A stretch of DNA of 64,000 bases from Acidobacteriota bacterium (GCA_039933215.1 JBDTOO010000004.1:5844-69843), one strand, 5' to 3'; positions 37,641-64,000 are shown, numbered from the stretch's first letter. Notes: generated by a model from the letters alone, not told the origin. A program made the numbers and translations.

Positions 37641-38564
37641 TTACTGGGGAGGCTTCGGCTGCAGGTCCGGGTTCGCCGCTCCCGGAATGTACCCGGACTT
37701 GCCGTCCGCGGGAGCGGTGGACGGGGCGGACCCGGCGGGCGCCGCGTAGAGGCTCCCCTGGCCGTACGGAGTCGGCCGAGGGGCCGGAGGGGAGCTCGCG
37801 GGCGCCGGAGCCGTGGCGGGAGCACCGGAGGCTCCGGCCGAAGCGGCGGCCGAGGCGGCGGCCGCCGCGGCGACGGCCGCGGGCGGAGCGGCTGCCGGCG
37901 GTGCGCTCCAGGTGGGCGTGAATCGGAAGTGGTTGATCGTCTTGTCGCCGACCGGGAGGGTGACGGTGAAATTGGCGGACTGGCCGCCTTCGATCGTGCC
38001 GCCGGCCATGATCGCGTTCGCGCTCGTGACGGCGTTTCCGGCTTCGTCGATCCCGCTCACCGTCATGCGGGTGCCGGTCACGGTCTCCGTGCCGGTATTC
38101 ACGACATTGCCCGTGAGAAGAAGGTTCGTCCCCGCTTTCTGCTGCTTGTAGTCCCCGACCTCGACGCGCGCGGGACCCGCCTTCGCTCCGTTGGTCTTGT
38201 CGACCTCGTCGACCGGGATCATCGAGGAATGTCCGACGTCCGCGTCGGTCACGCGGACCCTGGCCCTGGGCTCCCGGCCGGAGCGCACGGCGTCGGCGGG
38301 CGTCGAAGGCGGAGCGACGACGGCCGGGCGGGCCGCCACCGGCCCGCTCGACCGCGCGGCCGCGGTCGCCCGGGTGTCGATCTCGGTCACCGGCACCGAG
38401 AGGAGCGTCCCGTCGGCCCGGGTCAGGATGGCGTTGCTCCCCTGCTGGACCCACGGCTGCTTCAAGTCGATGCGCGAGCCTCCCCGCAGGACGACGACGT
38501 CCGAAGCGAGCGCGAGGCCGGCGGCCAGGAAGAGACCGGTTCCGACGGATCGAATGTGGCTCAT
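37641..38564 (-). CDS. secreted hypothetical protein with an Ala/Pro-rich C-terminus, last gene of the minor-pilin/pilY1 operon
   Basis: Signal peptide. ATGA overlap with the pilY1 stop. Confidence 0.5.
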
Positions 38565-41500
38565 TGCTGCTGCTCTTTCCAGTTCTGACGGTTCTGCTTG
38601 CCGTCGAGATTATCCGTATTCTCGTCCAGCTTGCCGGTGGTGTGCGAGTACGTCGTGTGACTCTTCTGATCCGAACCGATCGTGTTCGCGGCGCTGACGA
38701 CGCCCGTCCCCATGTCCGACCGGTAGTCGGCGTACGTCAGGGTCGGGGAGGTCGTCGGATCGTAGAGCGGCGCTCCGTTCCGGTAGAAGAACCGGTACTG
38801 GAAGGAGTTGCCGTCGGTCGCGCACGGATTGGACACCGGCGAGAACGTGAGGACGGAGAGGTATCCATTCACCGCGATGACCGAGGACGTGGCCTTCTCG
38901 TCCTGCGTCTCGAAGTCGAGGTAACCCCCGAGCGAGAAGTCCGGCGGATTGGCGACCGTCGGGTTGATCGAGGTCAGGTCGGTGTCGTGAAGGGTCGTGA
39001 CCGCGCCGTCGTCGATCATGAAGAACAGCCGGTTGACCGAGGGATTCGGCGTCTTCAGGAGGTCGGAGCGGTCCCCCGTGCCCCAGGCGACGCCGAGAGT
39101 CGGCCGCGCGCCGCCGTTCAAGTAGATGAGCGTCGGCTCGAGGAAGATCGGCTGGTTCGGCTGCGTCGTTGACGTCGAGGCGTCGAACCGGAGGATCGGC
39201 TGCCAGTTGGTGATCATGTTCGAGACGATGAGCCCCTTCTTCGGCGTCGACGCGGCGTCGGCGGTCAGGTCGAGGCGCCACATGCGGCCGTTCACGTCGC
39301 CCATGTAGACCACATCGAGATACCCGTCGTCGTCGTAGTCGGCGACGGCCGGCGGCGCCGGCATCGGAGCGAAGTCCGACGCGCCCGTCCCGCTGTCGTC
39401 ACCCGACGTCGCCTTGTAGATGATCTTGCCGGTCTCGATGTCGAGGACGTAGATCGCCCGGCCCTTGGTCGCGTTGACGCCGGACGTCACGATCGGGTCT
39501 CCCGGCTTGAACGAGGGATCGTTGCCGCCGCCGAAGATCGCGACGTAGCGGTCTTCGTAGGCCGCTCCGACGACCACCTTGATCCGGCCGATGACCGGAG
39601 TGGACCACGTCTCGCCCATCGCCGGCAGGCCCAGGCAGGTGCCGGGGCTGACCGCGCAGTCGTCCATGACCTCCCAGAGAACGTTGGGGTAGATGCTGGG
39701 GCAGGAACCGCCGCCGTTCAGGCAGTCGGGTACGGTGTGCTTGCCGGCCGTCTTCACGCCGTAGGTCGACGAAGCGACGACGGTGTCGACCCGGTCCGGC
39801 TGGGTCACGTCGAGCCCGAAGACGGCGTTGCCGCCCTGGCGCAGCGTACCGACCAGGACCGTCCGCCAGGCCCGGTTCCCGTTCACCGGGGCCCCCGAGT
39901 GGTTCGTGTCGATGAACACGTCGCCGAGCGAGACCGAGCCGTCCACGAGGTAGCGGGGCTGCGGCGGGAAATTCAGGAGCTTCGTCTCGGACTTCATGAC
40001 CGCGCGGGGCTGGTACGCGAAGATCTCGCGCCCCGTGCCGAGGTCGAACGTGCCGGAGAAGACTCCGGGGTCGCGGCCCCACACGCCCGCGTCGAAGGCG
40101 TGGAGGAATCCGTCGTTCGAGCCCACGAAGACCACCTTGCGGCGCTTCTCGTGGAAGGTCGCGAACGTCGGGTAGGCGTTCAGGCTGCCCGAAAGATACG
40201 GGTATTTATGCGGAGGCTCGAGCACGAGCGGCTCGGAGTGGAAGATGTCGCCGAGCTTGTGCCCGTAGCCAGGGATCCCCGCGCCCGCCGAGGGAGGAGC
40301 CGGATCGGTCGGAATCTGCGGCGCGACGCCGGGGGCCGGAATGTTGTCGCGGTAGTAGTACGAGTAGAAGTTCTGCTGTCCGGCGGCCGGTCCGATGGCG
40401 GCGCCGATCGGCTTGACGCCCGGCAGATTCAGGATCTCGTCCCGGTTTCCGTTCGTCGACATGCCGCCCCGGAGGAACGCCACGAGGCGCTGCGCCTTGA
40501 CGTCGTCCGTCCCCGGAGTCAGGCCCATGTTCGTCATGAGGGTGGTGAAGCAGCCGCCGGTGCAGGAGCCGGTGTTCGGCAGGAACTCCCTGCGCACGAG
40601 AGGCACCGTCGGCGCTGCGCCGTCGGACCAGATCATCTTCCGGCCCGGCCACACCTTCAGGGGGCCCGCGTTAGCGGCTGTGTACGGAGCGCTCGGAGCC
40701 GCTTCGTTCTCGGAGCCGTTGCCCGTCAGGGTCGCCACGGGGTCCGTGTAGCCGAGGACGCGAGCCGCGTTCCAGGCGGGGAACCTGAGATCCGGATTCG
40801 CGTTGTCCGGGTCGGTCTCGTCCGGGAACCCGCCGCGCACGGGGCCGGCCGGGGTGGGCGTCGGCGTGGGACCGCCCGCGGTCGGCACCGGCGCGATGCC
40901 GGCCACGAGCGGGATGAAGCCGATGGAGTCGAGCTTGTAAGCCTTGAGCGAGCCGCTCCAGATGGACCACTGCGACGCGACGTCGTTGCCGCTGGAGTCC
41001 TTGCTGTCGTGGCTGGGGATGACGGCTCCGAGGATGCCCGTTTCTCCGAAGCCCGTCGACACCGCGGGAACCGAAGGAGCCGCGATGACGTTCGAGGTGC
41101 GTCTGAAGTCGATGATCGTCTGAAGGGCCGCCAGGATGGCGGCGCGGTTGTCCGCCGGATAAACCAGGCCTCCGCTGTTGTCCGCGATGCACTTCAGGCG
41201 GGGATCCGCCGGGTTCGTGTTCATCGCGATGACGTTGACCGGCACGCCCTTGACCTTGATCGAGAGGTCCGCGGCGGCCGCGAGGGCGCGGGCTCCGGAC
41301 GGGGATTCCGGAAGCAGAAGCTCCCCGAGGTCGCCGGCCGGGCCCTTGCCGGTCGGTCCGCCGACGCACGGGTTGGAGAAGCACTCGTCGAGGCCGTCCG
41401 TCAGGAAGACGACGATGTACTTGCGGCAGTTGATGCTCGGATCGTCCGTCTGCGGGAAGACGCTGTTGACGAGGTAGTTGTAGACGTCGTGCAGTGATCC

Positions 41501-44086
41501 CGCGAGGGGCGTGCCGGGAGCGGTCACGACGACGTTCCGGGCGTCCTCGGCGAGGGAGTACTCGTCCATGTGGGGCTTCGTCGAGTCGTAGTTCACGATC
41601 GACGTCGAGAAGCGCAGCAGGCGCTTGATCGCCTGGACGCTGTCGCCGTCGGTCGTCTTGAAGGCGCCCCAGTCGCGGGAGAACGGAACGACCGGCCAGT
41701 CCGCGGGACTGGGCGCCTCAGTGCCGGGCTGGTAGGGCAGGTAGGCCGGGTTGCCCGGCGCGGAGTCCGAGAAGTGCGCAATGCCGCCGCAGTCCCCCCC
41801 GTACGGGTCGCACGGGTTCGCGAGCGGCGGGAACGGACACGAGACGCCTCCGGACGCGTCGTTCGGGAACTGCTGGTCGCGCTGCGGCCGGTCCTTGTTG
41901 TAGATCGCCGAGTAGGCGCCCTGGTTGTGGCGGTTCGCGATCGCATCGGGCAGCGTGTCGGCGTCGCCGTCGGCCGCGACCGAACCCCACGGCGGGTTGC
42001 CGTTCGTCACGTCCTGCGCCGTCGCCTGGTAGACCGGGGGCAGGTCGTACAGGTCGGCGCGCCGGTAGCTGACGCGGACGACCCGCACGGGGGGACCGGT
42101 CAACGCCGCCGGATCGGCCTGGGGGTCGTCGAATCCGCGGTACGCGCGGGGAAGCGGATCGCCGTCGGGCTCGCCGTCGCCGTCGAAGTCCACGAACGAG
42201 CAGGACTTCAGCGGATCGTACTGGCACGGCCCGCACAGAAGCGGCGGGTTCGGGGGGCTGTTGAAGAGCGACTGCGGCACGCCCGGGCACGGAACGCCGG
42301 GGGAGCTCGAGGACGGGGGGGGCGGAGGCGGAGCCATCGCCAGGAGGCCGCGCATCGCGGCGGACACCCAGCGTCCCGCCGCCGGGATCAGGCTCGCCGC
42401 GGGCATCTGTCCGCTGGGGAGCGTGATGACGGGCGTCGGAGTCCGCGTGCTCGAGGGCGTCCGCGTCGGCGTGAACGTCGGCGGCAGCGGCGTCAGCGTG
42501 AACGTCGCCGTCCGCGTCGGCGTCGCCGTCAGCGTGTTCGTCTGCGTCGGCGTGTTGCTCGGCGTGAAGGTTTTTGTGATGGTCGGCGTGTTGCTCGGCG
42601 TGAACGTCTGCGTGAACGTCCGCGTGACGGTCGGGGTGCTCGTCGACGTGAAGGTCGGCGTGATCGTGCGCGTGTTGCTCGGCGTGAACGTCGGCGTGAT
42701 CGTGGGCGTCAGCGTGATCGTCGGCGAGAGCGTGGGCGTCAGCGTCTGAGTCGCCGTCCGGGTCTGCGTCAGGGTGACGGACGGAGTCACCGTGGGACTC
42801 TGCGTTCCCGTGGCCGTCGCCGTGAACGTCGGCGTGATCGTCGGCGTGCTCGTCTTCGTGAACGTCGGCGTGATCGTCGGCGTGTTGGTCCTCGTCGACG
42901 TGCTGGTGAACGTCGGCGTGATCGTCGGCGTGCTCGTCGTCGTGAAGGTCGGCGTGATCGTCGGCGTCAGCGTGATCGTCGGCGTCTTCGTCGGCGTGCG
43001 CGTCTTCGTCGGCGTGCGCGTGTTCGTCCGTGTGCGTGTGTTCGTCGGGGTATTGGTCTCCGTTGCGGTGTTCGTGACGGTCGGCGTCGCCGTCGGCGAG
43101 GCCGTGGAGGTGTTGGTCGGAGTCGGGGTTATCGTGGGCGTGTTCGTGGAAGTCGGCGTCGGCGTGTTCGTGGCGGTGGCCGTCGGCGTCGGCGGAGGCG
43201 CCCACTCCTCGATCTCGACCACGAGGTTGGGATCCGAGTAGTTGCCCGAGACGACCTTCATCCGCAGCTCGTATCCGCGCCGCGTGGCGGACTGCGTGCG
43301 GTAGATCACCTCTCCCTGGTTCAGACCCTTGGGGCCGAACGCTCCGCGCCAGGTGCCCGGAGCGGGAGCGGGCGGGACGGGGACGCCGACGCCCGGCCCG
43401 TACGGCGGCCGGGTGTCCGCGACCTCGCCCGTGTCCTCGCGGTTGTAGCTGTGCATGACCTTGTGGCCGAACTGCAGGTACCGGCCCTGGGAGATGTCGG
43501 GGTAGTCCCAGACCCCCACGCCGCTGTTGGGGTTGAACACGGCGTCGACCGACCCGCCGGGGGAGACAGCCGACGTGACGTCGATCTTGTCTGCGAAGTA
43601 GAGGAACTCGACGCCGCCGTTGTTCAGCAGGTCGCCCTTGACCCTGGCGCCGTTGATCGGATCTCCGAACGCCGCCGTGTCCTCGGCGCCGAACGACTGG
43701 TTCGGGTTGCGGTAGTACGCGAAGGCCCAGTTGACGTTCTGGCTCGTCGAGAGCACCTCGCGGAGCACGCTCTTGGCGACACCGAGCTTCGACCCTTCCG
43801 TGGGCACACCCGTCGTGCCCTCCGGGTAGATGAAGTCGTCCATGTAAGCCGGCAGCTCGAAGGAGTCCGTGAACTCGCGGTTCATCGAGTGCGAAGAGTC
43901 CAGGATCACGATCACGTCCGCGTTGGCGCCGGGGTTCGTCTGAAGGAGCTGTCGATCCTCCGGGCGGGCCGGAGAGGCCATGACGAAGAGGAGGAGCATC
44001 GTCACGGCGGCGCGATGCCGCTGTGCGAAGGCTCTCAGACCGCTGCGATGCGATGACGGGTTGTTTTTCATGGCCTCAGCTCTCAA
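38561..44086 (-). CDS. pilY1: PilY1-like type IV pilus tip adhesin (1841 aa): N-terminal VWA domain, roughly 260-aa Thr/Pro-rich tandem-repeat region, C-terminal PilY1 beta-propeller
   Basis: VWA MIDAS motif [11 protein letters not shown]. [14 protein letters not shown] repeats at residues 295-555. C-terminal [15 protein letters not shown] Ca-binding loop typical of PilY1/PilC. ATGA overlap with pilX. Confidence 0.7.
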
Positions 44087-44670
44087 AAGGGCAGTTTCTC
44101 GGGATACGGACCGACCTCGATGTCGGCGACGAGCGCTTTGGAAGACTCCGGCACGAGGGGATTACCGGGCGTGTTGCCCCCCTCGGTCCGCACCTCGAAG
44201 CTCCACAGATACAGGGCGGTTTCCTTGTTGTTCTGGTTCATCGGACCGAGGGGCATGTACCGCCGCCCGACGAGGCTCGGCGTCTGCACGTGCACCTGCA
44301 GGCCCGTTTCGGACGCGTCACCCGTGAAAAACGAACCGGCCGCATGGACGTGGCTCGGCATCTGGAAGGTGAGGCGGCCGAAGGGCGTCGTGAACTCCGG
44401 GCGCTTCATCAACGGAATGGTCGGCGCGCGCATCTCCGCCGACGCCCAGCGGATGCCCGAGTCCGCGGCGTAGAAGGCGCGGTTCACGGACCACTCGTTG
44501 GCGGCGATGCGGGACTCCGTGCTCGTGACGAGCATCAGGGCGATGCCGATCACGGTCAGGATGGCGAGCACCAGGATCGCGATCACGAGCGCCGCGCCGC
44601 GCTCGCCGCGGCGGGCGCGGTACGCGGGTGACACTCTTCGGGGACGCGGCGATGTGGCGAAGGTCTTCAT
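44083..44670 (-). CDS. type IV pilus minor pilin PilX-like protein
   Basis: PilX N-terminal domain: [35 protein letters not shown]. Confidence 0.6.
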
Positions 44671-44683
44671 GGGTTTCCCGAGG

Positions 44684-46039
44684 TCAGTAGTTCCGGAGAT
44701 TGATCTTGATCGTCTGGATCCGGCGGCGGAAGTGCGGTTCCGTCGACAGGGTCGGGTACTGCGCGACGTCCGGGATCCCCGCCGTCACGGGCGTGTTCAT
44801 CACGACCATGCCGAGCGAGCCCTCCGCGCGATAGGTCGGGTCGGGGTCCTTCGACTTCGCGACGAGCGAGACCATGACGCCCTGGAGGCGCGGGCAGTGC
44901 GCGTTCGGGGTTCCGGGCACGAAGAAATCCGTCGCCACGTTCACGGTCTCCGTCGGCACGTTCGGGCGCCACTCGTCCTTGTTCGCCGCGGTCGAGAAGT
45001 TCTCGTCCGTATCCGTCGTGGCGTTGATCGACGCGGTGTCCCGGTCGATGCTGCCGTTGTCGTCGGCGTCCACGCCGTAGGCGATCTGCATGTCCTCGAC
45101 GTCGTCGGCGAGGCGCACGACGTCGAAATGGTCCCCGCGCCGCGTGGCCTGGGCGAGCGCCGGATGGAGGTGGTCCGTGTCGTCGATGAAATAGATGATG
45201 TCGTCCAGGATACCGGCGCGCCGGACGTTCTTGAGGCCTGCGGCGACCACCCCGGCGGCTCCGGGATCCTCGCCGTTGAAGCTCTGGGCGAGCGCGGTGC
45301 CGTACTTGACCGCGGCACCGAAGGTCCCCGTGCCGACGAGCGTCGTGGGATTGTCGAGCTGACCGACGCTGTACGAGTTCTGCATGATCCCGCAGGCCGG
45401 GTGGAGGTCGTCGTTGAAGGAAACCACGACGAGAAACGGGTTCACGCCCGTCGCCGACTGCGTGTAGAGATCGATGGCCGAGAACTGGGCACGGCCGTTG
45501 GCGGGATCGTCGTTGACGTGCTGCTTCGTGAGCACTCCCGTGATCGGCGCCGTCCAGAGGAGCATCGCGCTTCCGACGCACGCGGCCGGAGACGCTCCGA
45601 TCGCGCCCACACAGCCGTGCCCTTCGTCGAAGCCGACCAGGGGCGAATTGATCACCCCGCGGATCTCGATGATGTCGGTCCCGTCACGAACGGGAACGTC
45701 GACATCGGAAAGGTTCTTGATCTTGGTCGAGGAGACGTTGTCGTAGCTCGCCGAGCCCGAGTAGCCCGGCAGCCCGTTCGGCTGATGGTTCAGGACCGCC
45801 TGGGTGACGTAGACCCCGCCGGCGCCCGCGGCGCGGATCGTCCGGGTCATCTGGTAGATGCCGAAGCGCACGGAGCCCTGGGCGTCCGCGACGTCCTGCT
45901 CGCTCTTGTTGATGCGGGCGCTGGCGTCGAAGACCGCCAGGAGACCGAGCATCGCGATCGCGAGCAAGAACACGACGACCAGCATCTCGATCAGCGTGAA
46001 GCCGTGCTCCCGGGGGGAGAGGGTACGAACGGTCGTCAT
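44684..46039 (-). CDS. type IV pilus minor pilin PilW-like protein
   Basis: Prepilin motif HGFTLIEMLVVVFLLAIAML. ATG at 46039 gives an ATGA overlap with pilV. About 450 aa. Confidence 0.6.
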   Translation of the reverse strand: MTTVRTLSPREHGFTLIEMLVVVFLLAIAMLGLLAVFDASARINKSEQDVADAQGSVRFGIYQMTRTIRAAGAGGVYVTQAVLNHQPNGLPGYSGSASYDNVSSTKIKNLSDVDVPVRDGTDIIEIRGVINSPLVGFDEGHGCVGAIGASPAACVGSAMLLWTAPITGVLTKQHVNDDPANGRAQFSAIDLYTQSATGVNPFLVVVSFNDDLHPACGIMQNSYSVGQLDNPTTLVGTGTFGAAVKYGTALAQSFNGEDPGAAGVVAAGLKNVRRAGILDDIIYFIDDTDHLHPALAQATRRGDHFDVVRLADDVEDMQIAYGVDADDNGSIDRDTASINATTDTDENFSTAANKDEWRPNVPTETVNVATDFFVPGTPNAHCPRLQGVMVSLVAKSKDPDPTYRAEGSLGMVVMNTPVTAGIPDVAQYPTLSTEPHFRRRIQTIKINLRNY

Positions 46040-56332: not shown

Positions 56333-56827
56333 CTACTGCTGGGTGCCTTCGGGCCACTGCAGGAAGGCGCCGTCCGCATACGCGATGTCGTCGTTGAAGT
56401 CCGTCGTCGTGCCGCAGACGAGCGTCGTGTTGATGGTCTTGTTGCGTCCGCCCGACTGGATCCGATAGTTGTTGCCCGGCGTGTCGCTCGAGTAGTTCAT
56501 CGCCGCCGACCAGCCGTCGACCTTCGGGGGCTGCGCGATGTACGTCGGCGAGAGATTCGTGAACGACGCAGTGGCGAGCGCCACGTTCGAGCCGCCCGTG
56601 TACAAGCCCGCGGCGCAAGCGGCGGCCGGGTACTTGTTGTTGTCGACCGCGTAGGACTCGACCGCCGTCGCCAGCGCCCGCATGTCCGACATGGTCCGCT
56701 TCTGCTTGCCGCGCTGCACGGCGTTCAGAAGGTTGGGGATCGCAATCGCGGCCAGGATGCCGATGATCGCGATGACGATCAGAAGCTCGATCAGAGTGAA
56801 ACCCGACTCCGCTTTTCTTGGGGACAT
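56333..56827 (-). CDS. type IV pilin (PilA/GspG-like), copy 2
   Basis: SGFTLIELLIVIAIIGILAAIAIPNLL ... MSDMRALATAVESYAVDNNKYP. RBS AAGGA upstream. Confidence 0.75.
   Translation of the reverse strand: MSPRKAESGFTLIELLIVIAIIGILAAIAIPNLLNAVQRGKQKRTMSDMRALATAVESYAVDNNKYPAAACAAGLYTGGSNVALATASFTNLSPTYIAQPPKVDGWSAAMNYSSDTPGNNYRIQSGGRNKTINTTLVCGTTTDFNDDIAYADGAFLQWPEGTQQ
56336..56810. repeat. 475-bp direct repeat (copy A), near-identical to 56963..57437 (pilin gene duplication)
   Basis: The two stretches read identically base for base over most of pilin copies 2 and 3. Confidence 0.8.
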
Positions 56828-56918
56828 TTGGTCATCCTTTGGTCACGAAGGCCTGGACCGGGAGCCGCTTCGGCGATAGGAGCGGGACAGATTCCCGGCC
56901 GGAGAGTTCAAAAAAAAA

Positions 56919-56941
56919 CGGTCCCGACCGGGTCGGGACCG
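56919..56941 (-). terminator. rho-independent terminator after pilin copy 3
   Basis: Perfect 23-nt palindrome cggtcccgaccgggtcgggaccg followed on the minus strand by a U9 tract. Confidence 0.7.
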
Positions 56942-56961
56942 TTTCCCTGGGCAACGCCCGA

Positions 56962-57450
56962 TTACTGCTGGGTCCCTTCGGGCCACTGCAGGAAGGCGCC
57001 GTCCGCATACGCGATGTCGTCGTTGAAGTCCGTCGTCGTGCCGCAGACGAGCGTCGTGTTGATGGTCTTGTTGCGTCCGCCCGACTGGATCCGATAGTTG
57101 TTGCCCGGCGTGTCGCTCGAGTAGTTCATCGCCGCCGACCAGCCGTCGACCTTCGGGGGCTGCGCGATGTACGTCGGCGAGAGATTCGTGAACGACGCAG
57201 TGGCGAGCGCCACGTTCGAGCCGCCCGTGTACAAGCCCGCGGCGCAAGCGGCGGCCGGGTACTTGTTGTTGTCGACCGCGTAGGACTCGACCGCCGTCGC
57301 CAGCGCCCGCATGTCCGACATGGTCCGCTTCTGCTTGCCGCGCTGCACGGCGTTCAGAAGGTTGGGGATCGCAATCGCGGCCAGGATGCCGATGATCGCG
57401 ATGACGATCAGAAGCTCGATCAGAGTGAAACCGGATTCCCGTTTCTTCAT
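56962..57450 (-). CDS. type IV pilin (PilA/GspG-like), copy 3; likely the major pilin, with its own promoter and terminator
   Basis: MKKRESGFTLIELLIVIAIIGIL .... RBS GGGAGGGAAG. C-terminus identical to copy 2. Confidence 0.8.
   Translation of the reverse strand: MKKRESGFTLIELLIVIAIIGILAAIAIPNLLNAVQRGKQKRTMSDMRALATAVESYAVDNNKYPAAACAAGLYTGGSNVALATASFTNLSPTYIAQPPKVDGWSAAMNYSSDTPGNNYRIQSGGRNKTINTTLVCGTTTDFNDDIAYADGAFLQWPEGTQQ
56963..57437. repeat. 475-bp direct repeat (copy B) of 56336..56810
   Basis: See copy A. Confidence 0.8.
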
Positions 57451-57493
57451 CTTCCCTCCCTGTTTTCTATGCTGTTGAGTTCGCCCGGTATAG

Positions 57494-57509
57494 AGCAAGG
57501 GGGAAGCCA
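57494..57509 (-). promoter_or_regulatory. candidate sigma-54 promoter (TGGCTT-N5-TTGCT on the minus strand) about 45 nt upstream of pilin copy 3
   Basis: GG (-24) and GC (-12) elements with canonical spacing. Type IV pilin genes are classically RpoN/PilR-dependent. Confidence 0.4.
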
Positions 57510-57582
57510 GAGAGCGTGGCATTCAAGTCTTTCAAAATCAACGATTTGCGATCCAGGCCCCGAAGGCCCATGACGCGTTTTG

Positions 57583-59001
57583 TCACTTTGCGGCCGGAGA
57601 CGGTGACGAAATGCCGTCCGGGAAAAAGGCGAACTCCAGGAGCACCTGGTCCATCAGCTCGACGCCGCGGAGGTAGTCGCGCAGGAAAACGCGCTCGTCA
57701 TTCCCGTGGCGGCGGACCTCGTCGGTGATGTTGTAGGGGATGGGCGAGAAACCGTAGGCAGGATAGCCGCGGGCGCGAAAGGAGCTGCTCGTGGTCGTCC
57801 CCCCGAAGGTCGGAAGAGGGCCAAAGGGCACGCCGGGATTCAGCGCCTGGGTGACCCGCTCCAGGAGATCCGTGAGCGCGGTCGGGTAGGGGCTCGCCCT
57901 GGTGGCTCCGGAGGAGAGGCGCTCCCGGATCGCGACCCCTTCCTCCTTCGCGGCGGCGGCGATCGTCTCCAGAAACGGGTCGGGCGCCTGGCCGGGCGGC
58001 ACCGAGACCACGGCGTAACCGCGGTAGGTGGCCGTCTGCCCGGGAGGGTACGGGTAGGAGCCGGACCAGTGGATCCGCGGCTCGAGGAAGGCCCCGTACC
58101 GGTCGGGCAGGAGCGCCAGCTCCTTCGGATCGCGGCGCACCCGGTCCAGGTGGCGCAGCGGGTCGGTCAGCGGATGCTGGAGGTGGTTCGCGAGCATCCC
58201 GAAGGAGACGACGACCTGCGGATCGGGTTCCACCGGGGCCCCCTCGATGCGGGGAAACCGTTTCGCGAGCGCGTCGATCGGCTGCGCGCCGCGCGACTCG
58301 AGCTCGAGAAACCCGTAGCCCGCCTGCAGCGTCTCCAGGCCCCAGAAGCGGACGTCCCGGAGGACAACCTCGGCGGCCCCGCCCTCGTTCAAGACGGCGC
58401 CCACCCCTTCGAACCACTCCGGCCGGTGCTCGAGGAGCCATTTCGAGCCGAGACGCTGGCCGACCTCCTCGTCGGCCTCGGCCAGGAAGAGGATGTCCGT
58501 CTCGGGGACGATGCCGCGCTGTTTCAGGTTCCGCATCGCGATCGCCTGCGCGAGAGCGAGGGACTTCATGTCGTAGGACCCGCGCCCGTAGAGATAGCCG
58601 CGCTTGATCTCGGCGGCAAAGGGGGCGGCCTCCTTCCAGAGCGACGGGAAGACCGGCGCGACGTCGATGTGGTTCAAGAGAAGGAGAGCCCCCTTGCGGC
58701 GGCGGCCCGCCAGGCGCGCGAGAAGGTTGCAGCGGCCGGGCTCGGGACAGACGATCTCCGACGGGATGCCGGCGCAGTCGAAGATGCCCTGGAGGAAGAG
58801 GGCCCCCCCCCGCTCTCCCGCGCCCTCCGACGTCGTGTCGATGCGGACGTAGTCGCGCAGCAGCGCCACGGGCTCCTGCTTCAGCCACTCGGCGGCGGGC
58901 CGGACCTGGTCGAGCTCGATTCCAGAGGAGATCCTGGGCGGGCGCCGGCACGATCCGGCCGCGAGAACGAGCAGGACGGCGCACGCGATCTTCGCTTTCA
59001 T
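57583..59001 (-). CDS. M20-family metallopeptidase/deacylase lipoprotein
   Basis: Lipobox LAAGSC. Motifs HIDVAPV, GRGSYDMK and EADEEVG are typical of the M20 (ArgE/DapE/CPG2) family. Confidence 0.7.
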   Translation of the reverse strand: MKAKIACAVLLVLAAGSCRRPPRISSGIELDQVRPAAEWLKQEPVALLRDYVRIDTTSEGAGERGGALFLQGIFDCAGIPSEIVCPEPGRCNLLARLAGRRRKGALLLLNHIDVAPVFPSLWKEAAPFAAEIKRGYLYGRGSYDMKSLALAQAIAMRNLKQRGIVPETDILFLAEADEEVGQRLGSKWLLEHRPEWFEGVGAVLNEGGAAEVVLRDVRFWGLETLQAGYGFLELESRGAQPIDALAKRFPRIEGAPVEPDPQVVVSFGMLANHLQHPLTDPLRHLDRVRRDPKELALLPDRYGAFLEPRIHWSGSYPYPPGQTATYRGYAVVSVPPGQAPDPFLETIAAAAKEEGVAIRERLSSGATRASPYPTALTDLLERVTQALNPGVPFGPLPTFGGTTTSSSFRARGYPAYGFSPIPYNITDEVRRHGNDERVFLRDYLRGVELMDQVLLEFAFFPDGISSPSPAAK

Positions 59002-61325
59002 CTCTTCTCCCGTTTGCCCCTGGCGACGACGAACAATCCGATCGCCCCGTACAGTCCCGGGCCGAGGCCGGACTCGGGCCAGCCGGGCAACCGCTCCTCC
59101 CACTCGACGCGGTGGACTCCCGCGGGCAGCGCGAGCGCCGAATAGGCGAGCTGCGCCGGGACCGGCCCGACCTCGCGGCCGTCGACCCGCACGCGGCGGT
59201 GGGTCCAGAAACCGCGCAGGACGAAGAGCCACCCGGGCCGGGGGCCGCCGGCGTCGAGGACGAGCTTCTCGGGCCGATCGGACAGGACCCGCAGGCTTCT
59301 CTCTCCGGCGGTTCCCCGGGCGTCGCGCCCCGACTCGACGACGACCTCGCCTCCCGCGAGCGCCGGCAGGGTGCGAAACGCCTCGACGGGACCCGGCGTC
59401 TCTCTCCACGACCCGGCGAGACGGATGGCGGGAAGCGCCCCCGGGAGCTCGTCCCAGTCCTGGAGCGCGTCGCCCCCCGTGCGGCGGTAGCCGGGCAGGG
59501 CTTCCTGGTCCCGGTACCGGACGCCGAAGCGCAACCCGAGGGATCCGAAGAGCCCCTCCCCCCAGGCCTCCTGCGAGGCGCCGCCCGCGATCCGCCGCAG
59601 GCTCACGAGCCGCGAGAGATCCCCTTCGTCGAAGTCGTACTGGAGAACCGTTCCTCGCCCCCAGAGCTGGTGGGTCTGCTGATACCAGCCGCGGCGCCCG
59701 TCGTCGACGCCCGCCTGGTCCGCCTCGTCGTTGGCTTTCCAGACCGGCGAGAGCGGACGGAAGAGCGATTCCCCGAGCACCCGGAACCGGCCCGCCGGAT
59801 CAAGCCGGGCGACGTGCCGGGCGTACGCAGTGGGCGCGAGGACGTTCGCCTCGGGAAGGGAGAACGGAATCCGCAGCGTCGCCGCGATCGGAACCGCGGT
59901 GAAGAGCAGGAGCGCCGCCGCGGCCGGGGCGGGCCGGCGGGATCGGCGCGCGAGCAGATCGATCGCGATCCCCGTCGCGATCCACAGGAGCCCCGCCTCG
60001 GCGAGCGCGGCGGGAATGCGCCGCGCGGCGACGGCGGCGAGATCCGGCGGCGCGTCGGCGAGACGGGCGAGCGCCGGGTCCGTTCCGACCGCCGCCACCG
60101 CGAGGGCCCCCGCGGGCCGGCCGACGAGGGCGACGCCCACGGCGAGAGCCGCGCAGAGGGCGGCGGCGGCGAGAGGCCATCGAGGCCGGACCGCGATCCG
60201 CCGCAGGCCGTCCCACGCGAGACCGGCGAGGACGGCGAGGGCGAAGACCGTCAACACGGTGAACTTCTCCGGGTTGCGCAGCGGGATCGGCGACGCCGAG
60301 CCGCTCCACGCCTTCGGAAGCAGGCTGCCGGGGATTGCGAGCAGGAGCGAGAGCGCGAGCGTCCAGCGGGCGAACCTCACTGGTATCCCTCGATCGCGCC
60401 AGAGGAGCGGAAGCGCGACGACGGAGAGGGAGCCCGCGAAGAGCGTCGCGTGGAACCCGAGGGTCTTGTAGTGGAAGACGGGCCATCCCCACGTCTCCCA
60501 CCGCGAGAGCGCCGCCGTGGCGCCGAACGGATACGGGATCGCCAGCTCCAGGAGGCGCCACGGCGACAGCGAGAAGAGCAGCGCGTCGCCGAGCGTCAGT
60601 CCGGTGATCCCGCGGGCGGTCTCCGGCGCCCAGAGGAGCGTTGCCGCGAGCTGCGGCGCCGCCAGGAGTCCGCCGAGGAGCAGACCGAGGAGGAGCGCGG
60701 CCACGCGCTGCTCCCCGCGTCCCGCGAGCACGAGGAAGACGCCGCAGGCGAAGAGAGCCATCCCCGCTCCGAAGGGGTCGCCCGCGAGCCCCGCCAGCCC
60801 GAAGAGTCCGCCGAGCCCGATCGCGCGCCTTCCGACGGAAAGCCCCGGCCGGGCGAAGACACCGACGATCCAGGGGATGAGCGCGGTTCCGGGATGCAGG
60901 TTGGGAAAGAAAACCATCCCTACCCCGACGCCCGAGAACACGTAGGCGACCGCCGCGATCCAGCCGGCCGCCGCGGAGGCGCCGAGGGCGGAGAGGAGGA
61001 GGAGCATCCCGATTCCGGCGCCGAGCCAGTGAATTACGGGAAAGAGGCGCATCGCCGCCGGGAACGGAAGCGGCGCGAGAAGGATCCGGACGGGATAGAG
61101 CGCTCCCGCGTTGGGGTTCGGCGCGAGCGGCCGTCCTCCCGAAATCCCCGGCGACCACACGGGGATCTTCCCGCGGGACCACGCGTCGTGGACGGCGCGC
61201 TCCATGGGGAGGTTGTAGACGGTGAGATCGCGCCCCGCGTAGATCCGCCGGAAGAAGATCGGGTCCGCGTGGCACGCGATCACGAGGAGCGCGAAGAGAG
61301 CCGCGAGCCCGATCCGGTTTCTCAT
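58998..61325 (-). CDS. large polytopic membrane protein (775 aa), YfhO-like / putative GT-C glycosyltransferase, paralog A
   Basis: The ORF-track 1547-aa ORF was split. ATG at 61325 with an ATGA overlap to paralog B. N-terminal GRDLxxYxLPxExAxHxAxxRGxxPxW motif shared with the paralogs. Confidence 0.45.
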   Translation of the reverse strand: MRNRIGLAALFALLVIACHADPIFFRRIYAGRDLTVYNLPMERAVHDAWSRGKIPVWSPGISGGRPLAPNPNAGALYPVRILLAPLPFPAAMRLFPVIHWLGAGIGMLLLLSALGASAAAGWIAAVAYVFSGVGVGMVFFPNLHPGTALIPWIVGVFARPGLSVGRRAIGLGGLFGLAGLAGDPFGAGMALFACGVFLVLAGRGEQRVAALLLGLLLGGLLAAPQLAATLLWAPETARGITGLTLGDALLFSLSPWRLLELAIPYPFGATAALSRWETWGWPVFHYKTLGFHATLFAGSLSVVALPLLWRDRGIPVRFARWTLALSLLLAIPGSLLPKAWSGSASPIPLRNPEKFTVLTVFALAVLAGLAWDGLRRIAVRPRWPLAAAALCAALAVGVALVGRPAGALAVAAVGTDPALARLADAPPDLAAVAARRIPAALAEAGLLWIATGIAIDLLARRSRRPAPAAAALLLFTAVPIAATLRIPFSLPEANVLAPTAYARHVARLDPAGRFRVLGESLFRPLSPVWKANDEADQAGVDDGRRGWYQQTHQLWGRGTVLQYDFDEGDLSRLVSLRRIAGGASQEAWGEGLFGSLGLRFGVRYRDQEALPGYRRTGGDALQDWDELPGALPAIRLAGSWRETPGPVEAFRTLPALAGGEVVVESGRDARGTAGERSLRVLSDRPEKLVLDAGGPRPGWLFVLRGFWTHRRVRVDGREVGPVPAQLAYSALALPAGVHRVEWEERLPGWPESGLGPGLYGAIGLFVVARGKREKR

Positions 61326-63664
61326 CGGACGGCGGAGGCGTCGGCCGGAGGCGCCGAGTCCGGCCGGCGCCTCGCGCGGAAGAAGATGAGGGCGAACGCC
61401 AGCGCGAACAGGACCGGTCCCCACGCCGAGAGCGGGACGCCCGGCATCTCCTCGATCCATTCGACCTCGTGCCGGCCCGGCGGCACGGCGATGGCGCTGA
61501 AGGCGAGCTGGGCGGGAAAGACCTCCACGGCCCGGCCGTCCAGCCGGACGGTGCGGTAAGGCCAGAAACCGCGCAGGACGAAGAGCCACGCGGGATCCGG
61601 AGTCGCGACCCGGAGAGACATCCGCTCGGAGGTCTTCTCGAGGACGTCGATCCGGCCGGGGCGCGCCCGGCCGCGCGCCGGCGTCCCGCTCTCGATGACC
61701 ACTTCGTCCGGAGCCAGGCCGCGGATGGCCGCGACGGCCTCCCGCGAGCCGGGCACCTCCGTCCACGCGGGCAGGAGGCGCACGTCCGGAAAGGCGCGCT
61801 CGTGCTCCTCCCAGTCCTCGAGGGCGTTGCCGCCGATGCGGCGATATCCGGGCGGGGGCTCCTGACCCCGGTACCGCACGGCGAATCGCAGCCCGAGCGC
61901 CCCGTAGAAGGGCCCCGAGTCCCGATAGCGCGCCGCGGCCTCGGAGAGGCGCCGCAGGCTGTAGGCCCGCGACAGATCTCCGGCGTCGTAGTCGTCGGTC
62001 AGAACCGTGCCGCGCCGCCAGAGGACGGACGCGTACTGGCCCCAGAAGCGCCGGACGAATTCCAGGTAGCCCGGATCCGTGCCCAGGTAACGCGCCGATT
62101 CGGCGGGATCGAGCGAGGTGCCGAGCGTCCGGTAGGCGCGGTCGGGGTCCCGGCGGTCGAGATACCGCGCGAACGCCGTCGGCGCGAAGATCTCCTCCTC
62201 GCGAAAGTCCGGCGCGACGCGGCGGTTGGCGGCGATCGGGATCGCGGCGAGAAGAAGGAGCGCGCCGACGCGGAAGACGCGCCGCCCGACCCAGTCGAGC
62301 GCGAGGATCGTGGCCATCCACAGAAGTCCCGCTTCCGCGAGCGCGCCCGGCAGCGCCGCCGACGCCAGCGGCGCGAGCTCGCGCCCCTCCCCCACCGCCG
62401 CCACGGCGGCGCGCCCCGCGGGGCCGGGAAAGAACGCCGCGGCGGCCGCACACGCGGCGAGCGCCGCGCCGACGGCGATCCCGGGCCGGGCGGCCAGAGG
62501 CTTCTCGCGGATCCGGTCGTAGGCGATCGCGACGAGGATCGCGAGCGCGAGCACGACCGCCACCATTACCTTCTCGGGATAGCGCAGGGGCACCGGCGAG
62601 ACGCTCTCCCCCCAGCGGCGGAAGAGCGGGTAGGGGAGGATCGCGGCGGCGAGACCCAGCAGGAAGAGAGCGCGCGCGAACCGCGAGCCGGACGCGCGCG
62701 ACCGCCAGGCCACCACGACGGCGATCACCGCGAAAGCCCCGGCGTAGAGAGTGGTGAAGAAGCCGATGGCCTTGCCCTGCAGCGTGGATCGGCCCCAGAC
62801 CGAGAGGACGTCGATGTCCCAGGTCGGGCCGAAGAGATACGGCACCACGAGCTCCAGGAGCCGCCACGGCGAGACGGAAAAAGTCAGGACGTCCTTGACC
62901 TTCAGACCCTGGATCGCGCGCTCCGTCAACGGAATCCAGAGCGCGCTCGCGACGATCTGCGGCGCGGCGAGGAGCGCCCCGAGCGCGCCCGCGGCGGCGA
63001 GCTCCACGATCCGGGAGATCCGCGTCGGACGCTCCGTCTCGAACAGGATCCACACCGCGGCGGCCACGGCCGCGAGGCCGATCGTGAAAACGTCCCCGGC
63101 GTACATGTCGAGTCCGAAGAGGACGGACGCCGTGAACAGCCGCGACAGGCGGGTCGCGCCGGGCCGGGCGATCGCCCAGACGATCCACGGCAGGAGCGCC
63201 ATCCCGGGCTGGATGTTCGTGTAGAACGCCTCGGACACGCCGACGCCGGAGAACACGTACGTCACGGACGCCAGCCAGGAGGCCTCCCTCGACGCGCCGG
63301 CCGCGCGCGCCAGGAACATCGCCCCGAGGCCGGCCGCGATCCAGTGGAGAACGGGAAAGAGCCGCGCCGCGAGGGGGAACGGGAAGACCGACAGGAGAGG
63401 ACGCACGGGATAAAGAGCGCCCGTGTTGGGGTTGGCGAGCAGCGGTCGCCCGCCGGAGATCTCCGCAACCCAGACGGGGAGCCGGCCGCGCCCGTACGCG
63501 GCGTGGATCGCGCTCTCGACGGGCAGGTGGTACGAGAGCAGGTCGCGGCCGCCGAAGTTGCGCCGGACGAAGAGCGGGTTCGCGTAGACCGCGACGACGA
63601 GGACCGTGAAGAGAAGCGCCGGCGTCGCGCGCGCGTTCCAACGTGCCCCCCTGCGCGTCGCCAT
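61322..63664 (-). CDS. large polytopic membrane protein (780 aa), YfhO-like / putative GT-C glycosyltransferase, paralog B
   Basis: Collinear with paralog A at about 45% identity by eye. ATG at 63664 preferred over the TTG at 63700. Confidence 0.45.
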   Translation of the reverse strand: MATRRGARWNARATPALLFTVLVVAVYANPLFVRRNFGGRDLLSYHLPVESAIHAAYGRGRLPVWVAEISGGRPLLANPNTGALYPVRPLLSVFPFPLAARLFPVLHWIAAGLGAMFLARAAGASREASWLASVTYVFSGVGVSEAFYTNIQPGMALLPWIVWAIARPGATRLSRLFTASVLFGLDMYAGDVFTIGLAAVAAAVWILFETERPTRISRIVELAAAGALGALLAAPQIVASALWIPLTERAIQGLKVKDVLTFSVSPWRLLELVVPYLFGPTWDIDVLSVWGRSTLQGKAIGFFTTLYAGAFAVIAVVVAWRSRASGSRFARALFLLGLAAAILPYPLFRRWGESVSPVPLRYPEKVMVAVVLALAILVAIAYDRIREKPLAARPGIAVGAALAACAAAAAFFPGPAGRAAVAAVGEGRELAPLASAALPGALAEAGLLWMATILALDWVGRRVFRVGALLLLAAIPIAANRRVAPDFREEEIFAPTAFARYLDRRDPDRAYRTLGTSLDPAESARYLGTDPGYLEFVRRFWGQYASVLWRRGTVLTDDYDAGDLSRAYSLRRLSEAAARYRDSGPFYGALGLRFAVRYRGQEPPPGYRRIGGNALEDWEEHERAFPDVRLLPAWTEVPGSREAVAAIRGLAPDEVVIESGTPARGRARPGRIDVLEKTSERMSLRVATPDPAWLFVLRGFWPYRTVRLDGRAVEVFPAQLAFSAIAVPPGRHEVEWIEEMPGVPLSAWGPVLFALAFALIFFRARRRPDSAPPADASAVR

Positions 63665-64000
63665 GTGTGAAGTGAAGCTAGGATACGGCATCGGATCCAA
63701 ACCGCCAAACGCCGGTCTGCCGGCTCGAGAGCGCGCCGCCGCGATCGGAGTCGCGTTGCTCGCGGCGCTCTCCGTCGCAGGCCGTCTCTTCTTCCTTCTC
63801 CGGCGACCGGTGTGGCACGACGAGATCTACACCGTCTGGGTGTCGCGGCGGTCCGCGGCGTCCCTGGTCGCGGCGCTGCGGGCGGATTCCGGGCCGCCTC
63901 TCTACTACCTGCTCGCGCGGCCTTTCGTGGTGATCGCGGAAGCGCTCGCGCTCCCCGACTCCTTCGCCCGGCTTCTCTGTTTCGCCGCGATCATACTGAC
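63663..64000 (+). CDS. GT39/GT83 (ArnT/PMT-like) family glycosyltransferase, N-terminal part only; continues past the window end
   Basis: My own translation: MCEVKLGYG ... AAIGVALLAALSVAGRLFFLLRRPVWHDEIYTVWVSRR ... PPLYYLLARPFVV. The PxWxDExYT-type first-loop motif is typical of the family. Confidence 0.5.
   Translation, partial: MCEVKLGYGIGSKPPNAGLPARERAAAIGVALLAALSVAGRLFFLLRRPVWHDEIYTVWVSRRSAASLVAALRADSGPPLYYLLARPFVVIAEALALPDSFARLLCFAAIIL

Follow-up and report, generated by a model that had tools for sequence, protein, structure and literature searches.

Our analysis of the window, a 64,000-nt stretch of Acidobacteriota DNA, suggests that the window ends, on its right side, in one flank of a conserved protein-glycosylation locus linked to pilin genes in the Thermoanaerobaculia (Acidobacteriota), where YfhO-type enzymes, as analogues of TfpW, would form a periplasmic O-glycosylation system dedicated to pilins. 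We give this reading, in both its parts, roughly even odds (about 0.5). Three membrane proteins, M1, M2 and M3, stand in a pilin-linked arrangement that is kept in more than 100 related genomes and are therefore good candidates for pilus glycosylation, with M1 as the candidate pilin glycosyltransferase. The initial annotation had already proposed a candidate pilin O-glycosylation system at this place; the GT-C fold, the conserved linkage to pilins and the existence of precedents now speak for it, whereas we infer glycosylation itself, the catalytic activity behind it, its O-linkage, its donor, its acceptor and its sugar. The source organisms of the M1 loci are uncultured MAGs, and a glycan on their pilins is a prediction.

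Pilus genes and transcription signals of the window

Since the GC content of the window is ~70%, genes were called by GC3 frame analysis. The features discussed below are the following.

2632..3603: UbiA-family protein, best matches chlorophyll synthase and GGGP-type prenyltransferases
38561..44005, minus strand: PilY1-like protein, 1814 aa (PF05567, 1.5e-17)
44083..47228, minus strand: minor-pilin operon with fimT/gspH-like, pilV-like, pilW and pilX genes (Pfam)
44083..44634, minus strand: PilX_N protein (Pfam)
44684..46081, minus strand: PilW (Pfam)
46036..46674, minus strand: N_methyl protein, pilV-like (Pfam)
46665..47228, minus strand: GspH/FimT (Pfam)
47418..49907, plus strand: HEAT_2 + T2SSE fusion, a HEAT-repeat::PilT-type ATPase (Pfam)
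49904..51067, plus strand: PilT-type ATPase, pilT (Pfam)
50985..52799, minus strand: PAS-HisKA-HATPase sensor kinase, PilS-like by position (Pfam)
52784..53587, minus strand: prepilin peptidase PilD, family A24 (A24_N_bact 6e-34, Peptidase_A24 1e-18)
53584..55785, minus strand: M1, YfhO-type GT-C membrane protein, 733 aa (Pfam YfhO, relatives, fold)
55810..56289, minus strand: pilin A, GspG-like, diverged paralogue directly upstream of M1 (N_methyl + T2SSG)
56333..56827, minus strand: pilin B, GspG-like (N_methyl + T2SSG)
56910..56940, minus strand: hairpin GGTCCCGAC..GTCGGGACC then T9, intrinsic terminator after pilin C (direct reading)
56962..57450, minus strand: pilin C, GspG-like type IV prepilin (N_methyl + T2SSG)
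57494..57509, minus strand: sigma-54-type -24/-12 element (TGGCTT-N5-TTGCT) upstream of pilin C (direct reading)
57583..59001, minus strand: M20-family metallopeptidase or deacylase with a lipoprotein-type signal (Pfam Peptidase_M20, 5e-26)
58998..61325, minus strand: M2, YfhO-superfamily GT-C paralogue in tandem with M3, 775 aa (identity to M3, alignment to the M1 family)
61322..63664, minus strand: M3, YfhO-superfamily GT-C paralogue, 780 aa
63663..64000, plus strand: 5' end of a divergent polytopic membrane protein of the U493 family (orthology with genes beside M3 in relatives)

Pfam matches bear out the minor-pilin operon fimT-pilV-pilW-pilX-pilY1 of the initial annotation, as well as its HEAT::PilT fusion, pilT, PAS histidine kinase, pilD and three pilins, and the three large polytopic membrane proteins lie exactly where it had put them. 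Its view that the type IV pilus gene set of the region is full does not hold, since the window lacks pilB, pilC and pilMNOPQ: a profile scan gave no match for T2SSF, secretin or PilM/N/O, the sole T2SSE proteins are the two PilT-type ones, and the pilus genes present are only pilins, minor pilins, pilY1, pilD, pilT and HEAT-pilT. The absent genes may be located elsewhere in the genome. The other 38 kb of the window hold housekeeping genes.

The junctions are tight, with gaps of 24 nt and 43 nt and overlaps of 4 nt. Because M1 starts 24 nt past the last pilin gene (pilin A) and overlaps pilD by 4 nt, co-transcription of pilin A, M1 and pilD is likely. Pilins B and C share 100% DNA identity across at least 300 nt, their mature parts being identical, and pilin C is the probable major pilin gene. 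The strict sigma-54 pattern occurs at the same distance in 36/115 related loci, against 1.9% of random 250-nt windows, and the hairpin that follows pilin C was seen by direct reading, a consensus terminator scan not having it in its list. Since promoter and terminator flank pilin C, M3, M2 and the M20 gene are probably transcribed separately from the pilins. The end of M2 and the beginning of the M20 gene share 4 nt, and this lipoprotein peptidase gene between M2 and the pilins, not mentioned in the initial annotation, is conserved in that position between M2/M3 and the pilins.

Fold and family of the membrane proteins

Predicted structures of M1 and M3 have the GT-C fold, and in both AlphaFold models a set of TM helices is followed by a large domain rich in beta strands and then by one last TM helix. 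In M1 the helices extend to residue 446 and are followed by a mixed/beta-rich domain (447-698), a beta-sandwich without a Pfam TPR match, and by the last helix (701-723); in M3 the beta domain spans residues ~607-738 and the last helix 748-766. If the positive charge of the N-terminus is taken as the guide to sidedness, the models match the YfhO layout, in which a large extracytoplasmic domain separates the last two of ~13 TM helices (PMC5836110). For the description of M1, M2 and M3 as YfhO-like paralogs, indirect support from fold, relatives and mutual homology is strong, whereas direct Pfam support in the window is thin: M1 matches YfhO (PF09586) at 34.6 bits (cut-off 28.5) over its C-terminal 70 aa only (profile positions 765-835), M3 reaches 20.6 bits, below the cut-off (profile positions 88-262), and M2 has no Pfam match of its own. 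All 26 sequences scanned, that is, M1 and the 25 closest outside relatives of full length (identity to M1 24-34%), match Pfam YfhO (best E 1.9e-26), and some M1 orthologues are named 'YfhO family protein' by NCBI. Aligned from end to end, M2 and M3 share 46% identity, and M1 is distantly related to both (BLASTP 2e-13); hhalign of the M1 family against the M2/M3 family, M2 being a row of the latter alignment, gave 99.9% (E 6.7e-31, 647 columns). The M1-related superfamily comprises 62,029 cluster representatives.

An Arg-Asp pair in the first loop is invariant in the M1 family (R36 and D37 in M1, with D40) and in the M2/M3 family (R40 and D41 in M3, with E50). A regex search of the first 80 residues found no DXD, DDX, DXE or EXD; M1 has D-x-x-D. 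It is highly improbable that M1 is a non-catalytic accessory with a GT-C fold, chaperoning or docking pilins for PilD processing or assembly, a role for which the non-catalytic GT-C-fold subunits PIG-U and GAB1 offer a comparison. We favour an enzymatic M1, in which the invariant Asp37 (and Asp40) of the first periplasmic loop would form the catalytic site.

The gene starting at 63663 had been described as a GT39/ArnT-like glycosyltransferase, an identity for which we found no profile support: neither the 112-aa fragment nor 22 full-length orthologues gave a Pfam, NCBIfam or PDB-sequence match, none of the 22 matches PMT or PMT_2, and hhalign of the U493 family against genuine PMT_2 neighbours of relatives returned E 0.079. 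The likeness to GT39/ArnT is at motif level only (RPxWHDE, DSGPPLY/FY). The orthologues beside M3 in relatives are 426-509 aa long, and the real start in the window is possibly later, e.g., at 63756. Two JGI records label U493 homologues 'mannosyltransferase'.

Conservation of the pilin-linked gene order

Nearly all of the ~80 species-level Thermoanaerobaculia genomes have these genes in one and the same order: M2/M3, M20 peptidase, pilin(s), M1, pilD. Because the strong synteny all comes from one class with shared ancestry, the linkage counts (80 species-representative genomes) are inflated: M1 has a pilin upstream in 60/63 to 65/70 genome loci, pilD directly downstream in 69 of 72-74, the M20 gene upstream in 47/47 loci with enough flank, and M2/M3 upstream in 45/45. 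Metagenome loci have a pilin upstream of 49/51 M1 orthologues. Comparison of gene neighbourhoods shows that the linkage of M1 to pilins is conserved across Thermoanaerobaculia genomes. The block is intact despite different genes past pilD in eight loci (L015, L025, L031, L033, L042, L058, L068, L070), with breakpoints on both sides of it and none inside. Diverged lineages with an M1-like gene at 32-39% identity (L084/L085, L087, L158, L163) keep pilin(s), the M1-like gene and pilD, and two of them (L158, L163; M1-like 32%, PilD 43-45%) do so without M2/M3 or M20. The evidence is therefore unequal among the paralogues: the link between M1, pilin and pilD persists in deeply diverged lineages, whereas that of M2/M3 is limited to a single clade. 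Between M2/M3 and the pilins there is no co-variation in copy number.

These patterns bear on an alternative that we consider unlikely on balance, namely that M1-M3 are real GT-C enzymes acting on a non-protein envelope polymer (LPS core/O-antigen, exopolysaccharide or lipoglycan), and that the pilin genes adjoin a general cell-surface glycan island only by inherited gene order. The YfhO enzymes on which the family was founded have teichoic acids and not proteins as their acceptors, and the superfamily mostly serves non-pilin substrates of this kind (PMC5836110); the island of relatives holds many GT-C types (STT3-like, PMT_2, a weak MptA_B match and the U493 family), as polysaccharide and lipoglycan loci do; three of the more distant M1-like loci (L150, L160, L161) have no pilin nearby; and M3-M2-M20 is apparently transcribed apart from the pilins. 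However, M1 sits inside the pilin-pilD unit with its 24-nt and 4-nt junctions, this unit survives in L158 and L163 where all else has changed, and the breakpoints spare the interior of the block.

Donor and acceptor, and comparison with known systems

No GT2 donor gene or flippase was found inside the window. Relatives (L001, L003, L164) carry two GT2 genes two to four genes past M3, and two are also present in the closest relative (M3 83% identical). Their best NCBIfam matches are AglJ, Dol-P-hexose transferase, PpgS, ArnC and PgfS, all below equivalog cut-offs, and one of the two polyprenyl-phosphate-sugar synthase-like proteins is fused to a methyltransferase. The cluster of relatives also includes a PMT_2 gene and an STT3-family gene; the latter matches TIGR04154 (archaeo_STT3) at 217 bits, below the NCBIfam cut-off of 450, along with Pfam STT3 and an AglB_core-like domain. 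By tblastn, an STT3-like gene lies between pilin and M1 in five loci (L017, L018, L027, L040, L155), the family being confirmed by Pfam in L040 (50.7 bits), and the STT3-like proteins of L003 and L040 have no WWD[YW]G-like motif.

In the pathway that we propose, a DPM1/AglJ/PgfS-like GT2 would load a monosaccharide onto polyprenyl phosphate at the cytoplasmic face, the genes for this step presumably lying just past the window end, as in relatives; a flippase would move the lipid-linked sugar to the periplasmic leaflet; and M1 would transfer the sugar in the periplasm to Ser/Thr of pilins residing in the inner membrane before assembly. M2 and M3 could extend the glycan or serve other acceptors, e.g., the Thr/Pro tract of PilY1, a role that would parallel that of PgfM1 and PgfM2, two YfhO-type enzymes of one streptococcal pathway.

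The pilins are unusually conserved and not Ser/Thr-rich (S+T = 15%). Their sole conserved hydroxyl cluster, CGTTT, lies beside Cys and a DFNDD motif and may be structural, and N-X-S/T sequons are semi-conserved only, with two positions at 57-58% and none in 12/109 pilins. PilY1 does carry the mucin-like Thr/Pro tract ascribed to it, a TPTxT tract of ~270 aa (aa 268-538, roughly nt 42392..43204), which is a possible second glycan acceptor. A similar tract is found in both orthologues readable that far (L023, L082), and it was not seen within the first 411 aa of the L062 protein. That proteins are glycosylated but the main acceptor, instead of the major pilin, is this tract or some other protein of the periplasm or surface that is rich in Ser/Thr, we regard as distinctly improbable. 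The recurrence of the tract, the compact and conserved nature of the pilins, and the specificity of the streptococcal YfhO-type enzymes PgtC2 and PgfM1, which O-glycosylate Ser/Thr-rich disordered regions of extracytoplasmic proteins (PMC12041528), would fit such a preference, but pilY1 lies ~10 kb from M1 in a separate operon, the minor-pilin/pilY1 operon does not adjoin the M1 block in several loci, and the tract is checkable in few orthologues.

Among known systems, the proposed pilin-dedicated one may be compared with that of TfpW, the GT-C D-arabinofuranosyl transferase of Pseudomonas aeruginosa group IV (Pa5196/PA7) pilins, which is encoded just downstream of pilA (bioRxiv 10.1101/2020.04.19.049825). 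M1 shares with it the polytopic GT-C type, a gene immediately downstream of a pilin gene (pilin A), conserved acidic residues in the first periplasmic loop, a sizeable C-terminal domain on the periplasmic side and, as proposed, a polyprenyl-phosphate-linked donor. It differs in its match to Pfam YfhO, in its phylum, and in a C-terminal domain made of a beta-sandwich and a TM helix instead of TPR repeats; M1, M2 and M3 lack the YX6PFX7P (loop 4) and DDX (loop 1) motifs by regex, and the D-Araf precursor genes (DprE1, DprE2, polyprenyl-phosphate PRPP transferase) are absent among the window genes scanned. PglL/TfpO (PilO) of Neisseria, Pseudomonas group I and Acinetobacter are Wzy_C enzymes that transfer preassembled oligosaccharides linked to undecaprenyl pyrophosphate. 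They too have pilins as periplasmic substrates, tfpO being the gene that directly follows pilA, whereas M1 and M3 have a GT-C fold and no gene scanned in 50985..64000 matched Wzy_C in Pfam.

To our knowledge, teichoic acids and adhesins of Gram-positive bacteria are the only targets yet linked to YfhO-family enzymes. The CsbB/YfhO (Bacillus subtilis) and GtlA/GtlB (Listeria) systems share with the present one the YfhO architecture and, as proposed here, a pathway in three steps, with GT-A synthase, flippase and GT-C transferase in turn (PMC5836110), but their acceptor is lipoteichoic acid and they have no pilin linkage. The streptococcal PgfS/PgfM1/PgfE/PgfM2 and GtrB/PgtC2 systems resemble the present one as proposed: a YfhO GT-C enzyme is paired with a GT2 polyprenyl-phosphate-sugar synthase (candidate genes here in relatives), more than one YfhO paralogue serves a pathway, and the acceptors are extracytoplasmic proteins with Ser/Thr-rich regions. 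M1 matches the PgfM1 and PgfM2 models weakly in NCBIfam (17.7-22.3 bits, cut-offs 1400-1500), over ~60 C-terminal residues only. The streptococcal hosts are Gram-positive and the targets cell-wall-anchored adhesins, whose genes in S. mutans are in the same cluster as the Pgf enzymes (PMC12041528), whereas here a diderm host has type IV pilins as candidate targets, and the cluster showed no gene for an epimerase. Diderm Acidobacteriota are not known to make teichoic acid polymers.

Archaeal type IV pilins and archaellins are N-glycosylated by AglB (STT3). The STT3-family gene in the extended cluster of relatives, beside a pilin in five loci by tblastn, recalls this system, but it lies outside the window, scores below cut-off and lacks WWD[YW]G, and the pilin sequons are semi-conserved. 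It is rather doubtful that the whole island is a multi-enzyme pilus-glycosylation factory in which the STT3-like protein, two polyprenyl-phosphate-sugar synthases, PMT_2, U493, one to three M2/M3 proteins, a periplasmic M20 deacylase or peptidase and the pilin-embedded M1 would together attach a complex glycan, which may be methylated, to pilins (and to PilY1). If so, it would be a third, evolutionarily independent route of pilin glycosylation in diderms, besides PglL/TfpO and TfpW, and an echo of what AglB does in archaea, where it glycosylates type IV filaments.

Gene content and transcription of the pilin region

With a GC content of about 70%, the window gives raw ORF lists crowded with shadow frames; genes in 38561..64000 were called by third-position GC and then checked with Pfam and NCBIfam. 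The gene coordinates of the initial annotation proved correct, and the region holds the following genes and predicted signals.

pilY1-like gene (-), PilY1-like protein of 1814 aa (PF05567)
after the pilY1-like gene (-), PilX_N, PilW, pilV-like prepilin and GspH/FimT-like prepilin genes
47418..49907 (+), HEAT-repeat::PilT-type ATPase fusion
after the fusion (+), PilT-type ATPase (canonical pilT)
50985..52799 (-), PAS-HisKA-HATPase kinase
between kinase and M1 (-), A24 prepilin peptidase (pilD)
53584..55785 (-), M1, polytopic membrane protein of 733 aa
55810..56289 (-), pilin A, GspG-like prepilin
56333..56827 (-), pilin B, GspG-like prepilin
about 56910..56940 (-), perfect 9-bp hairpin with T9 directly after pilin C, predicted intrinsic terminator
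56962..57450 (-), pilin C, GspG-like prepilin
57494..57509 (-), sigma-54-type -24/-12 element (TGGCTT-N5-TTGCT), about 75 nt upstream of pilin C
57583..59001 (-), M20 lipoprotein peptidase
58998..61325 (-), M2, polytopic membrane protein
61322..63664 (-), M3, polytopic membrane protein
about 63663 to 64000 (+), divergent membrane-protein gene, first 112 codons only

The region had been described as a full set of type IV pilus genes, which overstates it: pilB, pilC and pilMNOPQ are all missing from the window, whose left 38 kb encode housekeeping functions (rmlABD, lptD, a thiolase, an acyl-CoA carboxylase, selA, an NtrC-type regulator and others). A 4-nt overlap with the pilY1 stop codon probably puts the gene of a predicted secreted protein of 307 aa (37641..38564, -) in the same operon; this protein has a weak FxLYD-domain match only and a Pro-rich tail at its end. 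The HEAT-repeat domain of the ATPase fusion spans about 500 aa; the fusion gene overlaps the canonical pilT directly downstream, and the pair is kept beside the kinase in most related loci.

Gene packing in the window fits pilin-M1-pilD as the tightest association, with gaps of 43 nt between pilins B and A and 24 nt between pilin A and M1, and overlaps of 4 nt between M1 and pilD and 16 nt between pilD and the kinase. The sigma-54-type element recurs at the same distance in 36/115 related loci, compared with 1.9% of 250-nt windows taken at random, and fits regulation through the NtrC-type protein encoded at 36183..37550 together with the PAS kinase. The hairpin after pilin C was missed by a consensus terminator scan and was spotted by reading the sequence. 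It is predicted to be strong, and suggests that pilin C is expressed at a high level from a monocistronic unit, while read-through reaches pilin B, pilin A, M1 and pilD.

Linkage of M1 to pilins and pilD

Homologues of M1 and M3 come from Thermoanaerobaculia MAGs, and in an Acidobacteriota MAG at NCBI their counterparts are ABI592_01615 (M1) and ABI592_01645 (M3). A genome scan, one genome per species, gave 80 loci with M1 identities of 48-69%, onto which the proteins of the window were mapped. Upstream of M1 there is a pilin in 60/63 to 65/70 loci with enough flank; where none was found, the sequence available upstream is shorter than 2.6 kb, and in two cases an STT3-like gene intervenes. pilD is directly downstream in 69 of 72-74 loci. 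The M20 gene and M2/M3-type genes were likewise found upstream of M1 in 47/47 and 45/45 loci, respectively. In eight genomes the block from the U493 gene (the orthologue of the partial gene at 63663) through M2/M3, M20, pilins and M1 to pilD is unbroken while the genes after pilD differ, which indicates that rearrangement around the block had time to occur. The gene-neighbourhood comparison across relatives proposed in the initial annotation finds the pilin-M1-pilD order in nearly all loci with flank.

More distant YfhO relatives were used to seed a metagenome scan, which returned mostly M1 orthologues (49/51 with an upstream pilin) together with several deeply diverged lineages, L087 among them. 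In two of these, L084 and L085, the genes run M2-like, M20, two pilins, an extra opposite-strand membrane gene, M1-like, pilD and pilT, with identities of 32-35% for the M1-like protein, which retains FRDQSDFF, 39% for M20 and 34% for the M2-like protein. The opposite-strand gene (L085 3881..5656, -; L084 1..1256, -) encodes a 591-aa membrane protein with no Pfam match, and occupies the slot taken in another locus, L040, by an STT3-like gene. Two other diverged loci, L158 and L163 (pilins 48-51%, M1-like 32%, PilD 43-45% identity), keep pilin(s), the M1-like gene, pilD and the kinase, with unrelated genes upstream and neither M2/M3 nor M20. Since these loci retain it on its own, pilin-M1-pilD is the deepest as well as the tightest association; that with M2/M3 and M20 is real, yet restricted to one clade.

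No pilin was found in three distant loci (L150, L160 and L161). The alternative that M1-M3 act on a non-protein envelope glycan we consider possible if rather doubtful. Across 45 loci the copy number of M2/M3 (1-3) had no clear relation to that of the pilins (1-3), and this comparison does not count as evidence here.

Family and fold of M1-M3, and candidate donor genes

Tandem paralogues with 46% end-to-end identity, M2 and M3 are distantly related to M1 (BLASTP 2e-13, over the N-terminal part and collinear C-terminal pieces); profiles of the two families align over 647 columns (hhalign, probability 99.9%, E 6.7e-31). The Pfam YfhO profile matches M1 with 34.6 bits, confined to the last 70 residues, and M3 with 20.6 bits, below the cut-off; M2 has no Pfam match, and in NCBIfam M1 matches the streptococcal YfhO-type PgfM1 and PgfM2 weakly and C-terminally only. 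Searches of both family profiles against PDB sequences found nothing, and fold comparison alone was informative. In the models of M1 and M3 a TM-helix bundle is followed by a large beta-rich domain and a single last TM helix, the layout described for YfhO (PMC5836110). Direct profile support being thin, it is this shared fold and architecture that settles the YfhO-type question. A search with the M1-family profile retrieved 62,029 cluster representatives (6,783 at E <= 1e-30), among which the M1 clade collapses to one 50% cluster. The 25 full-length proteins closest to this clade from outside share 24-34% identity with M1, and YfhO was matched by all 26 proteins scanned, M1 included (best E 1.9e-26). 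From sequence and models we place M1-M3 in the YfhO branch of GT-C as divergent members, and fold and assignment together exclude a transporter or other non-glycosyltransferase family, the case named at the outset as refuting a glycosylation role.

A motif search found no classical DXD in the first 80 residues of M1-M3. Both families have an invariant Arg-Asp where the first loop begins (in M1, R36 and D37, with D40; in M3, R40 and D41). A non-catalytic accessory role of M1 appears very improbable.

The closest relative of the window, L164 (M3 83% identical), stands in for its own contig past 64000. Beyond M3 in this locus and in L001 and L003 lie a U493 protein, a GT2::methyltransferase fusion, a PMT_2 protein, a second GT2 and an STT3-family protein, sometimes with a weak MptA_B-like protein as well. 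In L001 the two GT2 genes occupy 1201..1980 and 3713..5110. The best NCBIfam matches of both GT2 proteins are AglJ, Dol-P-hexose transferase, PpgS, ArnC and PgfS, all below equivalog cut-offs, and by this resemblance the two are putatively the kind of donor-making enzymes that a GT-C transferase needs. The rml genes could supply dTDP-sugars, but 46 kb separate them from the pilin cluster. Within 2632..8028 (-), where no rmlC was seen, rmlA (long form), rmlB and rmlD each score above the NCBIfam equivalog cut-off, and they adjoin one gene for a UbiA-family prenyltransferase and another for a DUF92/TIGR00297 membrane protein. A D-arabinofuranose pathway like that of TfpW was rejected, as the window genes scanned include neither DprE1 nor DprE2 and the UbiA protein belongs to a different type.

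The partial gene at 63663, which had been annotated as GT39/ArnT-like, corresponds by orthology to the divergent U493 protein of the relatives. That assignment could not be confirmed: the gene has no match in Pfam, NCBIfam or PDB sequences, hhalign gives no link to the PMT_2 neighbours, and a homologue search did not support it either. The family (about 480 aa, polytopic, lineage-restricted, 314 homologues; L001 6167..7648, -) has the invariant motifs RPLWHDE and DSGPPLFY and is possibly a novel GT-C-like family.

An STT3-like gene lies between pilin and M1 in five loci (L017, L018, L027, L040 and L155, by tblastn), with the family confirmed by Pfam in L040 (50.7 bits). This STT3/AglB-family gene of the extended cluster (L003 320..2329, -; L040 567..2852, -) encodes an STT3-like first-loop motif, FDSDSAYHLRR. 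A motif search found no WWDYG in the L003 and L040 proteins, so that the enzyme may not be a canonical N-oligosaccharyltransferase; as pilin sequons are moreover only semi-conserved, N-glycosylation of the pilins by this neighbour was down-weighted and is not argued for.

Possible acceptors and comparison with known systems

The 109 pilins from related loci are unusually conserved, with 153-155 aa in the mature form, a Cys pair and a C-terminal CGTTT-FNDDI-QWPEG signature; their variability is concentrated at residues 60-128, and S and T together make up only 15% of the sequence. The conserved TTT could serve as a glycosylation site or have a structural role. The DNA of pilins B and C shows 100% identity along a stretch of at least 300 nt (56334..56633 and 56963..57262, a 629-nt period), but leader peptides and upstream regions differ; the cause is a tandem duplication of very recent date or gene conversion, or possibly an artefact of the assembly. 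In PilY1, residues 268-538 form a TPTxT tract about 270 aa long, by analogy a textbook-looking substrate for YfhO-type enzymes (PMC12041528). A similar tract is present in L023 and L082, the two orthologues readable that far; 10-kb flanks stop before the tract, which is readable in only two to four orthologues. That PilY1 or other Ser/Thr-rich proteins are the true targets has this tract in its favour and the low S+T content of the pilins beside it; with M1 packed against pilins rather than pilY1, we judge it improbable.

We put the probability that M1 glycosylates the pilins at roughly one half. In the best-supported model, which is of periplasmic glycosylation, a GT2 enzyme would make a polyprenyl-phosphate sugar, the lipid-linked sugar would be flipped across the membrane, and M1 would move it onto pilins sitting in the inner membrane; M2 and M3 might lengthen the glycan or act on PilY1. 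For the M20-family metallopeptidase/deacylase, which has a lipoprotein signal (LLVLAAGSC) and overlaps M2 by 4 nt, sugar deacylation or pilin trimming are guesses. Beyond GT-C enzymes conserved next to pilins, all of this is what we infer. The initial observation of such genes beside pilins was largely correct, apart from the supposed GT39 gene and the full pilus set, and its glycosylation reading is plausible, better founded for M1 and weaker for M2 and M3.

Pilin glycosylation influences phage resistance, pilus surface chemistry, adhesion and immune evasion. To our knowledge, the established bacterial solutions are just two, Wzy_C-type O-oligosaccharyltransferases (PglL/TfpO) and the GT-C enzyme TfpW. 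If the model is true, a YfhO-type enzyme between pilins and pilD would be a third, across a class of abundant soil Acidobacteriota; the protein-glycosylating role of YfhO would reach from Firmicutes to diderm bacteria, and a slice of a mostly uncharacterised superfamily would gain a concrete, testable function. Literature searches on YfhO with pilins or type IV pili, and on pilin glycosylation in Acidobacteria, returned no paper with this linkage, an absence that is not proof. What appears to be new is a candidate GT-C glycosyltransferase encoded next to pilins and belonging to a family with no earlier link to pili. TfpW is likewise a GT-C enzyme, encoded directly downstream of pilA, and the M1 system would work alike; however, M1-M3 lack the DDX motif, the YX6PFX7P motif and the TPR domain, and there are no D-Araf genes, so M1 is not a member of the TfpW family. 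Nor is this a PglL/TfpO-type system, since M1-M3 have no Wzy_C domain. By family, the closest known system is that of the YfhO enzymes.
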